Positions 20 through 4,389 of a stretch of 11,122 bases of DNA are shown here, in pieces. Each line of letters starts with the position of its first letter. Position 1 is the stretch's first letter. Position numbers and translations under genes: made by a program. The DNA comes from a bacterium (lineage in GTDB: Bacteria > Zhuqueibacterota > Zhuqueibacteria > Oceanimicrobiales > Oceanimicrobiaceae). The notes beneath the pieces were generated by a model. The model was given only the letters and a program-made list of their open reading frames with translations. It searched no databases and had not been told where the DNA came from. The stretch covers positions 1 through 11,122 of the forward strand of contig JBBIIG010000094.1 of the NCBI GenBank assembly GCA_037446635.1. The letters run 5' to 3'.

Positions 20-103
20 GGAGGGCTAGTCCTAATTGGTAAGGCAGCGGTCTTGAAAACCGCCGGGAGTAATCCCTTGGGGGTTCGAGTCCCTCGCCCT
101 CCG
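20..103 (+). tRNA. tRNA-Ser, anticodon TGA (class II, long variable arm; CCA not encoded)
   Basis: Acceptor stem GGAGGGC(20-26)/GCCCTCC(96-102), discriminator G103. Anticodon arm GCGGT-CTTGAAA-ACCGC. Variable arm GGGA-GTAA-TCCC. T arm GGGGG-TTCGAGT-CCCTC. Followed by CTA, not CCA. Confidence 0.93.
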
Positions 104-105
104 CT

Positions 106-342
106 ATGCATTACGTCTATGTATTGAAAAGTGAGAAGACGGGCCGTCTGTATAAGGGTTCGACGAGTGATTTGCCGGCTCGGGTAAAATCACATAATCA
201 GGGAAAAGTAAGATCGACAAAGGCAGGGCGGCCGTGGGTTCTGGTTTATCATGAGGAGTACGCAGACAAAACCGCAGCGCGCAAGCGGGAGTTGTTTTTA
301 AAGAGTGGTTCGGGGAGAAGATTTCTCCAGAGTGTTCTTTGA
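106..342 (+). CDS. Stand-alone small GIY-YIG nuclease (UPF0213-like), 78 aa
   Basis: MHYVYVLKS...LYKGST..L.AR.KSHN.G....TK..RPW.LVY.E.Y.....A.KRE.FLKSG.GR matches the small GIY-YIG pattern, with the conserved Tyr/Gly/Arg/His/Glu positions present (YIG appears as YKG). Confidence 0.92.
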   Translation: MHYVYVLKSEKTGRLYKGSTSDLPARVKSHNQGKVRSTKAGRPWVLVYHEEYADKTAARKRELFLKSGSGRRFLQSVL

Positions 343-349
343 AGTGTGG

Positions 350-423
350 AATTGGTAAGGCAGCGGTCTTGTCCGCGCAGCGGATCCGCTGAGGCGGAAA
401 AACCGCCGGGCGCAATTTGCCTT
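350..423 (+). pseudogene. Internal fragment of a tRNA-Ser(TGA) (D-loop to variable arm), interrupted in the anticodon
   Basis: 350-371 is identical to 34-55 (22 nt) and 399-410 is identical to 56-67 (12 nt), separated by a 27-nt insert. A variable-arm-like GGGC-GCAA-ttt-GCCT follows. No acceptor stem and no intact T arm. Confidence 0.88.
372..398. repeat. 27-nt palindromic insert TCCGCGCAGCGGATCCGCTGAGGCGGA
   Basis: Terminal inverted TCCGC/GCGGA enclosing the perfect 14-nt palindrome CAGCGGATCCGCTG. Boundaries are defined exactly by comparison with the intact tRNA at 20-103. Confidence 0.88.
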
Positions 424-484: not shown

Positions 485-571
485 GGAGAGGTGGCCGAGT
501 GGCTGAAGGCACAGGTTTGCTAAACCTGCGTAGGGGTAACTCTACCGTGGGTTCGAATCCCACCCTCTCCG
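485..571 (+). tRNA. tRNA-Ser, anticodon GCT (CCA not encoded)
   Basis: GGAGAGG/CCTCTCC acceptor stem, discriminator G571, anticodon arm CAGGT-TTGCTAA-ACCTG, long variable arm, GTGGG-TTCGAAT-CCCAC T arm. Confidence 0.96.
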
Positions 572-593
572 CTTCTTATTGTTGGTTGGTGAA

Positions 594-2586: not shown

Positions 2587-4389
2587 ATGTTAAGAAAAAT
2601 ATTTCTGTGGTGCGGTTTTGTTTTGCTCGCGGCTGCCACTGATTCCGCGATGGCCAAGTCGTACCGACTCGACCGAGTCGTCATCATGGGTGAAGTCACC
2701 GCCCATGGCAGCTTAAAGATCGAGGAGTCGCGAACCTACTCTTTTCGCGGCCGTTTCAGTTGGGCCGACTATCGTCTGCCGCTCGACGAGTTGGGAACCG
2801 TGACAGATTTCTCCCTGCGCGAAGACTCGCAAGTATATCGCATGGTCGCCAACAAAGACCCCGGCACCTACCAAGTCGAGCAGAGCAATAGCGAATTTTA
2901 CGTGAAGTGGTTTTACCGCGCGCGAAACGAAACCCGCACGTTCGTTCTGAATTACACCGTTACTCATGCGGTCACGAAATATGCGGACGTGGCGGAATTG
3001 TACTACAAGTTTATCGGAGAAGCCAATCCCAAAGCGATTGACTCAGTCCGCGTCAGCATCCGCTTGCCGCAGCCGGCAGACACCGCCTTTGTGAGAGCCT
3101 GGGCGCACGGACCGCTGTGGGGCGAGCTTCGTTTCGAAGGGGGTCAAATCGCCATGAACGCCTCTCCGTTACCGGCCCGACGTTACTGGGAGGCGCGAGT
3201 CGTTTTTCCCAACTCATGGTTGGACGACGCCCTACCCTCTAATAGCGAAGAAAGGCTGCCAGCTATTCTCGCCGACGAGCAGCGCTGGGCGCGCGAAGCC
3301 AACGAGCTGCGCCAGCGCGAATTGCAGGATTTGGCGGAGCGCCGCGAGAACGAGAGGAAAGCCTGGCCGATTGCCGCCGCGATCTCAGCCGCTGGACTTC
3401 TGGGAATTGCGTTGCTTTATCACAAGTTCGGCCGCGGCTACGACGTGCCCTATCGTCAAAAAATCGATTCCACGATTCCCGATGATATCCATCCCACGTT
3501 GGCCAGTTACCTCTATTATCAAAAACAGATGACCGGCAATGCGCTCATGGCCGCCCTGCTCCATCTCGCTAATCGAGGTTACCTCAAAATTGGAGAACAA
3601 CCTGCGGCGACGGGCGGGAGGCGATTCGGTGCAAAGAAGCCGCGCTTCATGATTCAGCTCGAAAATCCAGATTGGCGGTTCGATTCCTCCCTCATGAACT
3701 TTGAAGCCAGCCTGCTGGAGTTTCTTTTCGATGAGCTCGCCAACAAAAGCGGCCAGCTTGATATCGATGATTTCTGAATGAATCATCGCTAAGTGCGCAA
3801 ATGGTTTAACGAGTGGCAGAAGATGGTGAAAGGCCACGTTCACGGCCAGCCATTTTGGGACCGCGCGAGCATCAAAGGCACGCTCATGGCAATCGGGCTG
3901 GGAGCCGTGGTTGTTGGCGCCGGCATCGTCATCAATATCAAGCTTGGGCGTCCGGGAGGGCTGGCGATTGTGAGCGGATTGGTTTGCTGCGGTCTGGCTT
4001 TCACCATCTTGCGTTACACTCCGGAAATGAAGCTCCTGCGAAAAAGACTCCAGGCTTTACGGAGATATTTAAAAACCTACCATTCCCGCACCACACGAGG
4101 ACAGAACATCCTGCAAAATATTCAGAACTATTTGGTCTTTGCCGTGGCGCTGGGCGTCGGCGCAAGCGTCATACAACGGCTTCTCGAAACCGTGCCCGCC
4201 TATCAACACCAGGTGTACTTTCCGTGGTATGCCGCGGGCGCCCACGCCGCGACCGAGAATTTTGCGGCGGCCGTGTCTTCATTTGTTTCGGTTGCCAACA
4301 GTTCCATGAGCTCGGCGGCGGGAGTGGGCGGCGGCGCGTCCGTTGGCGGCGGAGGCGGCGCTGGCGGGGCAGCGGGCGGCGCCGGATAA
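2587..4389 (+). pseudogene. DUF2207-like membrane protein (600 codons) interrupted by two in-frame stops; pseudogene or base-call error
   Basis: ORFs 2587-3777 and 3793-4389 share one frame (..DIDDF*MNHR*VRKWF..). Signal peptide, KSY.., DVAELYYKFIG, RAWAHGPL.G, TM segments, YLVFAVALGV and a Gly-rich tail GGGGGAGGAAGGAG are typical of DUF2207 proteins. Confidence 0.82.

Follow-up and report, generated by a model that had tools for sequence, protein, structure and literature searches.

How did a 27-nt palindrome come to lie inside the anticodon of a truncated tRNA gene, just downstream of a gene for a very small nuclease? This question is raised by an 11,122-nt stretch of bacterial DNA (contig JBBIIG010000094.1 of GenBank assembly GCA_037446635.1), which is hereafter called the window. 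It lies on contig C94 of the source genome, designated G000, and the features of the locus are collected in Table 1.

Table 1. Features of the tRNA-Ser locus at the start of the window.
Feature	Position	Strand	Remarks
Intact tRNA-Ser(TGA)	20..104	+	sole complete one found in the genome; empty target TG^AA at 55/56
78-aa GIY-YIG nuclease gene	106..342	+	PF01541; UPF0213/Slx1-like fold; start codon 1 nt past the tRNA
Dead partial tRNA-Ser(TGA) copy, left part	350..371	+	D-loop to anticodon TG; equals 34-55; repeat family D12
27-nt double-hairpin element	372..398	.	two hairpins without spacer, GATC at the centre
Hairpin 1 of the element	372-384		5-bp stem, 3-nt loop
Hairpin 2 of the element	385-398		5-bp stem, 4-nt loop; abuts hairpin 1
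Dead partial tRNA-Ser(TGA) copy, right part	399..410	+	anticodon A to variable-arm start; equals 56-67
tRNA-Ser(GCT)	485..572	+	

A first-pass annotation of this DNA had placed the insert between the TG and the A of the anticodon, with no base lost, no target duplicated and no freedom for the junction to slide. All of this was borne out by the intact tRNA gene, as the two flanking pieces, rejoined without the 27-mer, match positions 34-67 exactly. The insert begins with T where the right flank begins with A, and ends with A where the left flank ends with G, so the junction is fixed. On the ARAGORN call, the insert follows tRNA nucleotide 36 with 0 bases deleted. Neither a T arm nor the 3' strand of the acceptor follows the right part of the copy. 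A second, identical 27-mer occupies the same tRNA site in a partial copy on another contig of G000 (C90:12498).

The insert had also been described as a hairpin extending the anticodon stem. It is indeed palindromic, and 199 of 200 shuffled versions fold worse (z -2.8), but the extension of the stem did not stand. When the doublets of the family described below were compared at the variable position of their stems, pairing inside the hairpins was kept in 121 of 122 halves, whereas pairing across the centre was broken in 24 of 61 copies. The single long hairpin was therefore rejected, and the conserved fold is two small hairpins. The further proposal that two palindromic modules had been joined fits the genome well, in which the strict pattern finds 40 back-to-back doublets, 31 of them 27 nt long, against 1, 0 and 0 in three shuffled genomes.

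The genome-wide search for such modules and their dimers, which the first-pass annotation had called for, revealed a multi-copy family. TCCGC-N3-GCGGA occurs 103 times in G000 and TCCGC-N4-GCGGA 71 times, other spacers giving 6-20 matches. A wider definition raises the number of doublets from 40 to 73, among which lengths of 24, 26 and 27 nt dominate and 58 have a length divisible by 3. What looks like a single hairpin is in many cases one half of a variant doublet, and of 93 isolated halves, many of them of this kind, only 5 fit the target motif given below. The doublets lie in both orientations, within and between genes, and nest inside several other repeats of the genome.

The family extends well beyond G000. 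In a sample of 167 genomes of the phylum, 12 match the doublet pattern (37 matches in G000, six each in G001 and G081, three in G082, two in G083, one each in G067 and G092, and five single weak matches), and controls with the reversed pattern gave 0. A 30-nt form was found in 14 of 49 distant genomes, namely those behind 50 of the 80 loci at which we located homologues of the nuclease; 44 of its 45 copies are 30 nt long, and the 14 genomes are small (0.6-1.2 Mb), many being labelled Patescibacteria. Altogether, 60 of the 61 copies outside G000 are 27 or 30 nt. Among the 120 metagenome stretches listed for a loose pattern of the tRNA-insert junction, one is a genuine Ser(TGA) copy that carries a 30-nt doublet, and none of the 120 has a nuclease match. 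Four stretches of viral contigs carry the pattern, none of them inside a tRNA.

If the doublet is mobile, some copies should have an unoccupied counterpart. An exact empty allele, in which the 9 + 9 flanking bases are joined, was found elsewhere in G000 for 14 of the 40 strict doublets. In the wider set the figure is 16 of 73, with 11 distinct 18-mers, the chance expectation being 2 in 2000. Empty alleles at a duplication offset were absent from G000 for both sets (40 and 73 doublets), and at most one of the 73 has direct-repeat flanks. Many of the G000 sites are copies of a few host hairpin repeats, and these sites are thus not independent insertions. Two of the doublet-bearing genes are, judging by their motifs, presumably metH and recC. 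The metH-like gene carries an in-frame 27-nt doublet at TG^AA that is absent from all 11 orthologues compared, the gap being exactly 27 nt in nine of them; on this alignment, the site is an independent case of clean insertion. The orthologue comparisons for the recC-like gene and for the gene at C2:79692 are not clean, because the doublet sits inside a larger insertion of a host repeat, and the gene at C1:287536 has no orthologue in five genomes. The earlier claim of a miniature mobile palindrome thus gains its support from the exact empty alleles and from the insertion missing in every metH-like orthologue. Judged by these comparisons, the element is mobile and inserts cleanly.

The insertion sites share a preference that can be read from their flanks. 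YK^MR was present at 36 of the 40 strict G000 sites against a background of 6.8%, the motif having been drawn from those same sites, and it fits only 45 of the 73 sites of the wider set. Among the 61 sites in other genomes, YK^MR occurs at 24 (background 5.9%) and the relaxed form YN^NR at 52 (background 24%). As read from these alignments, the target preference is weak and symmetric, with a pyrimidine at -2 and a purine at +2, and it takes the form TG^AA at the present site. The first-pass annotation had also suggested tabulating copies in protein genes: 22 of the 73 doublets lie inside long ORFs, and the length is a multiple of 3 in 21 of these 22 versus 37 of the 51 outside. The ORF copies are read in all three phases. 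The length of 27 nt is therefore explained as the outcome of a filter imposed by protein genes rather than as a feature of the tRNA. Copies in genes, being 24, 27 or 30 nt, add 8-10 codons.

Genes for tRNAs stand out among the targets. In G067, G082, G083 and L035, as well as in a metagenome locus (L251), the Ser TG^A site is likewise occupied, by variants whose sequences differ. In the distant genomes, 9 of 45 doublet sites lie in dead partial tRNA copies, where a generous estimate gives an expectation of 0.8; this was the outcome of the tabulation of tRNA sites proposed at the outset. These nine sites involve Thr, Pro, Val, Asp and Arg tRNAs, with the element in D-arms and T-loops and an intact copy near each. 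Among 13 cleanly parsed placements in tRNA copies (excluding three of 16 rows, one for L353 and two for L357, in which the parsing went wrong), none deletes a base, and the duplicated tRNA piece ends within 12 nt of the element in 11 and 4-5 nt from it in eight. The two tRNA copies of G000 end 12 and 21 nt from it. On this distribution, tRNA genes are favoured targets in which inserts survive only in dead copies. We also considered that the element might be specific for the anticodon and rejected this, as the element also occupies the D-arms and T-loops of the copies listed above, besides a TG^AA site in a protein gene. As a separate observation, partial copies of Met, Asn and some Ser tRNAs (L126, L131, L134-L137, L140, L142 and L267) contain a 16-18-nt hairpin that replaces ~10 nt of the tRNA.

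Introns of tRNAs occur in the anticodon loop, which is where this insert sits, and the copy on C90 has its own sigma-70-like promoter (11/12 match) and may be transcribed. Both facts would suit an insert that acts at the RNA level, either as a mini-intron or as part of a structured RNA to which the partial tRNA gives rise. We nevertheless regard this as very unlikely. Both host copies in G000 lack the T arm and the 3' strand of the acceptor, and removal of the doublet restored a complete tRNA in none of the 73 cases in G000, in contrast to what is expected of a tRNA intron, be it group I/II or of the archaeal BHB type. In addition, Rfam gave no match at window positions 340-420, and the element occurs in either orientation, genic as well as intergenic. 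The insert is thus not a tRNA intron, as the first-pass annotation had already held. The C90 region concerned (C90:12403-12646, locus L286), which lies upstream of window position 1, comprises a tandem duplication of the promoter, with two TTGACA-17-TATATT sites, and a 5' partial tRNA-Ser copy without the nuclease gene but with the identical 27-mer.

The arrangement of the locus in relatives indicates which part is new. The tRNA-Ser(TGA) motif was found in 28 of 29 loci of relatives, uninterrupted in all 28, with the next tRNA within 200 nt. Since the next tRNA directly follows tRNA-Ser(TGA) in those genomes, positions 106-410 of the window represent a later addition. Could the locus instead be an assembly artefact or a chance micro-rearrangement? 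It lies at a contig break in a repeat; the end of C90 and the start of the window overlap by only 19 nt at the putative C90-C94 join, and a synteny check of this join found no match in 33 loci. Such an explanation is, however, barely credible, because near-identical sequence is present in contigs from other samples, the same site holds variants in other genomes, and the family has 40 members against 0-1 in shuffled sequence. In related strains, short contigs of sequencing runs X1 and X2, possibly one data set filed twice, cover window positions 349-408 with one difference, and those of X4 cover 360-416 with 3-6 differences; by the bridging rule of 31 letters on both sides of the insert, no contig from X1, X2 or X4 spans it. 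A screen of sequencing runs found none containing half of the query words, the shares in RNA runs being 0.05-0.06.

Several other details of the region are worth recording. Window positions 411-415 (CGCAA), directly after the partial copy, equal the variable-arm loop of tRNA-Ser in several relatives and not that of the genome's own tRNA, a hint that the partial copy in the window is older than that on C90 despite the same insert in both. The X1/X2 contig that covers window positions 56-377 carries a 19-nt palindrome in the T-loop of a tRNA copy before the nuclease gene, as does L116. Further downstream, a perfect 17-bp inverted repeat with a 5-nt loop (2487-2525) directly follows tRNA-Arg(TCG), and a gene for a DUF2207 membrane protein is split into 2587-3777 and 3793-4389 by a frame change near 3775, in the middle of the C-terminal domain, which may be a real frameshift or an assembly error.

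The 78-aa protein encoded within the added segment retains Y5, Y16, G18, R26, H30 and E62, which are invariant in 55 aligned relatives. Its structure, predicted with a pLDDT of 97, most resembles those of UPF0213, HIGLE and Slx1. These belong to a group of enzymes that cut branched DNA, in agreement with the titles of PDB entries; a search of NCBIfam gave no family above the cut-off. Of 80 loci with a homologue, 43 have a tRNA within 400 nt, and many of these have a partial copy with a hairpin insert. The start codon leaves no space for a ribosome-binding site after the 3' end of the tRNA (window positions 104-108), and homologues too start directly after a tRNA or a partial copy, which suggests leaderless translation after tRNA processing. 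In a sister clade (L118, L125, L133, L127, L049 and L050), the nuclease gene has short terminal inverted repeats and lies inside protein genes, which from their motifs are presumably integrase-like, in the manner of an insertion sequence without a transposase. At L052, a homologue is apparently inserted near the 5' end of what is, judging by a motif, presumably a 16S rRNA gene.

Does this nuclease have anything to do with the element? The first-pass annotation had suggested that the enzyme generates or recognises the palindrome, which is plausible from the sequence context. The two best matches to the nuclease in the 167 genomes of the phylum (63% and 61%) both sit at tRNA-Ser(TGA) with an insert; the gene in G067 has an internal stop. 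Among nine candidate mobiliser genes in G000, this one alone adjoins the element, at 29 nt, the others having it at least 3 kb away or not at all on their contig. The tabulation of sites near GIY-YIG genes was positive in one respect, as a nuclease homologue is found no more than 250 nt away at 3 of the 45 distant sites (0.27 expected), and negative in another, since 58 of the 61 sites outside G000 have no homologue within that distance. Sister clades of the nuclease associated with Arg, Gln, Ala and Met tRNAs each stay with one tRNA and one type of hairpin across phyla; the Arg-type hairpin, for instance, has 3-10 matches in all four genomes of the Arg clade, four in one other genome and at most one in the other 44.

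Such a correspondence does not hold for the present element. The nucleases found beside it, at Ser, Pro, Val and Asp loci, do not form one clade. The Ser group has a support of 83 in one tree and is broken up in the other, and the tree of 111 proteins, calculated in quick mode, leaves 53 of its 108 forks open. The two distant genomes with a Ser-type nuclease contain 0 matches to the doublet pattern, whereas 14 genomes sampled for other clades contain 1-10. G081 has six copies of the element and only one weak match to the nuclease family, and at six of the nine tRNA-copy sites the stretch examined lacks a nuclease gene. Members of the family occur in 46 of 46 genomes tested, 43 of which were chosen for having it, so their co-occurrence with the element is uninformative. 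As far as gene neighbourhoods can tell, the link between element and nuclease is real but loose: enriched nearby, and not one nuclease clade per element.

The proximity of the two might recall homing, in which the nuclease cuts the anticodon site of tRNA-Ser and the insert marks the cut site and makes it immune. The same TG^A site is filled in at least six other loci and nuclease clades track tRNA isotypes, as this explanation would have it, and immunisation of the site had been proposed from the outset. The sole intact tRNA-Ser(TGA), however, keeps its site open and ends 1 nt before the start codon of the nuclease, which leaves immunity unsupported and distinguishes the locus from that of a GIY-YIG homing endonuclease, where the target site is lost. 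The element occupies dozens of sites outside tRNAs as well as other arms of tRNAs, and a bare catalytic domain of 78 residues has no room for a domain that binds a long site. Homing is accordingly improbable.

The main rival to the neighbouring type of nuclease is a different mover. Besides the present gene, G000 has matches to four Y1-transposase-like and two DUF559 proteins, and to two proteins that we take to be Ssn-type from their motifs and their GTCATT/GTCGTT flanks; all of these could act in trans on the element. Clean insertion without duplication is typical of the single-strand chemistry of HUH enzymes, to which the Y1-like genes would correspond. If a HUH/Y1 enzyme, another small nuclease or host repair alone moved the element, the cassette at this locus would only supply redundant tRNA copies in which an insert is harmless, and the loose tie between element and nuclease clade as well as the tRNA-copy sites lacking a nuclease gene would be expected. 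We consider this possible and well short of probable. Every Y1, Ssn and full-length DUF559 gene of G000 is flanked by another palindrome, particular to that gene, and the element does not occur within 3 kb of any of them. The excess of distant sites near nuclease homologues also argues against it, as does the tendency of copies to end 4-5 nt from the element, since a passive landing pad would not lead one to expect such clustering. Ssn-, Y1- and DUF559-type genes, each flanked by its own palindrome family, are found at C6:91719, C4:20504, C29:28227, C2:204828 and C7:26170, and G000 is in this sense a collection of nuclease/hairpin pairs.

We therefore favour, with a probability of roughly 55%, the reading that the insert is a miniature, probably non-autonomous double-hairpin element, and that small GIY-YIG nucleases of the neighbouring type, together with host repair, are its likely movers. 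The element and its targets would be handled as single-stranded DNA hairpins, and the nuclease would place its nick a few bases outside the hairpin, much as Ssn cuts beside its own. Repair of such a nick in a tRNA gene could lead to a local duplication with one end ~5 nt from the element, and the nuclease gene may ride in some of these duplicated tRNA segments. Only outcomes that keep one intact tRNA would survive, which would account for inserts being seen only in dead copies. Joining of strands after the action of a hydrolytic nuclease would need a host ligase or template switching at the fork. Which enzyme acts, that its substrate is single-stranded and how strands are joined are all inferences of ours. 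It is tempting, and decidedly more speculative, to extend this favoured reading to a general transposase-free system, in which a twin hairpin of 24-30 nt would be paired with a minimal nuclease of the Slx1 type, a nick ~5 nt off followed by host repair would paste the hairpin cleanly into new loops and duplicate nuclease-bearing tRNA segments, and sister clades would do likewise across phyla with their own hairpin and tRNA.

To our knowledge, most very small palindromic repeats, such as RPEs, SDRs, mitochondrial double hairpins and many REP-like families, have no known enzyme behind their movement. The 27-nt element offers a target rule, clean junctions and duplication end points that can all be read from genomes, and the candidate enzyme, with its active site intact and its gene so close by, would make a pair directly testable by an oligonucleotide assay. 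If our reading is correct, there is a further way in which DNA moves without a transposase, essential proteins can gain insertions of 8-10 residues from such elements, and a set of very small nucleases specific for a structure or a site is to be added to those known. For annotation, such inserts in partial tRNA copies should not be called introns. A literature search covering the main text of openly accessible papers found no description of the element or of the tRNA-nuclease layout, and the literature matches listed for four short motifs of the element are all unrelated by title. The element is real and widespread, and apparently an unpublished variant of miniature mobile palindromes. Tiny palindromic insertions as such are known already; what is notable here is the readable target rule, the tRNA duplications that end ~5 nt from the element, and the candidate enzyme.

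How, then, does the element compare with known systems? Unlike a MITE derived from an insertion sequence, it has no target-site duplication. Among the smallest repeats, the small dispersed repeats of Nostoc, reportedly described by Elhai et al. in 2008, are said to be 21-27 nt, to lack target duplication and to occur also in genes. One-line mentions in PMC2884548 and PMC3116915 give them as ~20-nt, possibly mobile repeats; those families (SDR1-8) are cyanobacterial, and the comparison is by description only.

REPINs, or dimers of REP sequences, and their RAYT transposases, as characterised in PMC3116915 and PMC3733652, resemble the present system in that short palindromes are involved, a doublet moves, the repeat is non-autonomous and it nests in other palindromes. 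The doublet is the moving unit here as well, since the empty alleles match its ends. REPs are defined in PMC3733652 by a tetranucleotide, GTAG or CGTC, that borders the palindrome on one side, a tag that the consensus of our element lacks, and REPINs are inverted REPs that form one hairpin with a spacer, in contrast to spacer-free twin hairpins of 24-30 nt in total. Some REP dimers lie in genes according to the same two papers, whereas our element has 22 of 73 copies in ORFs and is in excess in dead tRNA copies. None of the four Y1 matches, the counterparts of RAYTs in G000, has the element within 3 kb.

The closest parallel in layout is Ssn, a single-domain GIY-YIG protein whose gene lies beside a multi-copy hairpin repeat (NTS/SRM), an arrangement that the authors of PMC11893778 liken to a mobile element in its main text. 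The window likewise has a single-domain GIY-YIG gene beside a hairpin repeat. Its protein has no long C-terminal tail like that of the two Ssn-type proteins of the same genome. A tblastn search of G000 with it does not find these two, and it branches apart from them in the tree, which sets it outside the cd10448 clade as far as they represent that clade. According to the main text of PMC11893778, from which the word 'tRNA' is absent, Ssn acts on single-stranded DNA alone and cleaves it at a fixed position 5' of the hairpin, and few NTS copies (2%) lie within genes. NTS carries an oriented leader of the CGTCATT type there, whereas our element is symmetric. The copy ends 4-5 nt from the element recall cutting of the Ssn type beside a hairpin, an analogy that is suggestive only.

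Rickettsia palindromic elements, as outlined in PMC10969869, share with our element in-frame palindromic inserts in housekeeping genes. They are ~150 bp and encode a conserved peptide in that account, in contrast to 24-30 nt, or 8-10 codons, read in three phases, and our element additionally has tRNA copies and a nuclease gene nearby. The double-hairpin elements of fungal mitochondria, as described in PMC10085805, are GC-rich, consist of two adjacent hairpins, are potentially mobile and are near-identical across species; they are mitochondrial and mostly intergenic, and the likeness to our element is one of description. The double-hairpin element thus works like REPINs, RPEs, NTS/Ssn and mitochondrial double hairpins, and departs from each family tested in a defining feature.
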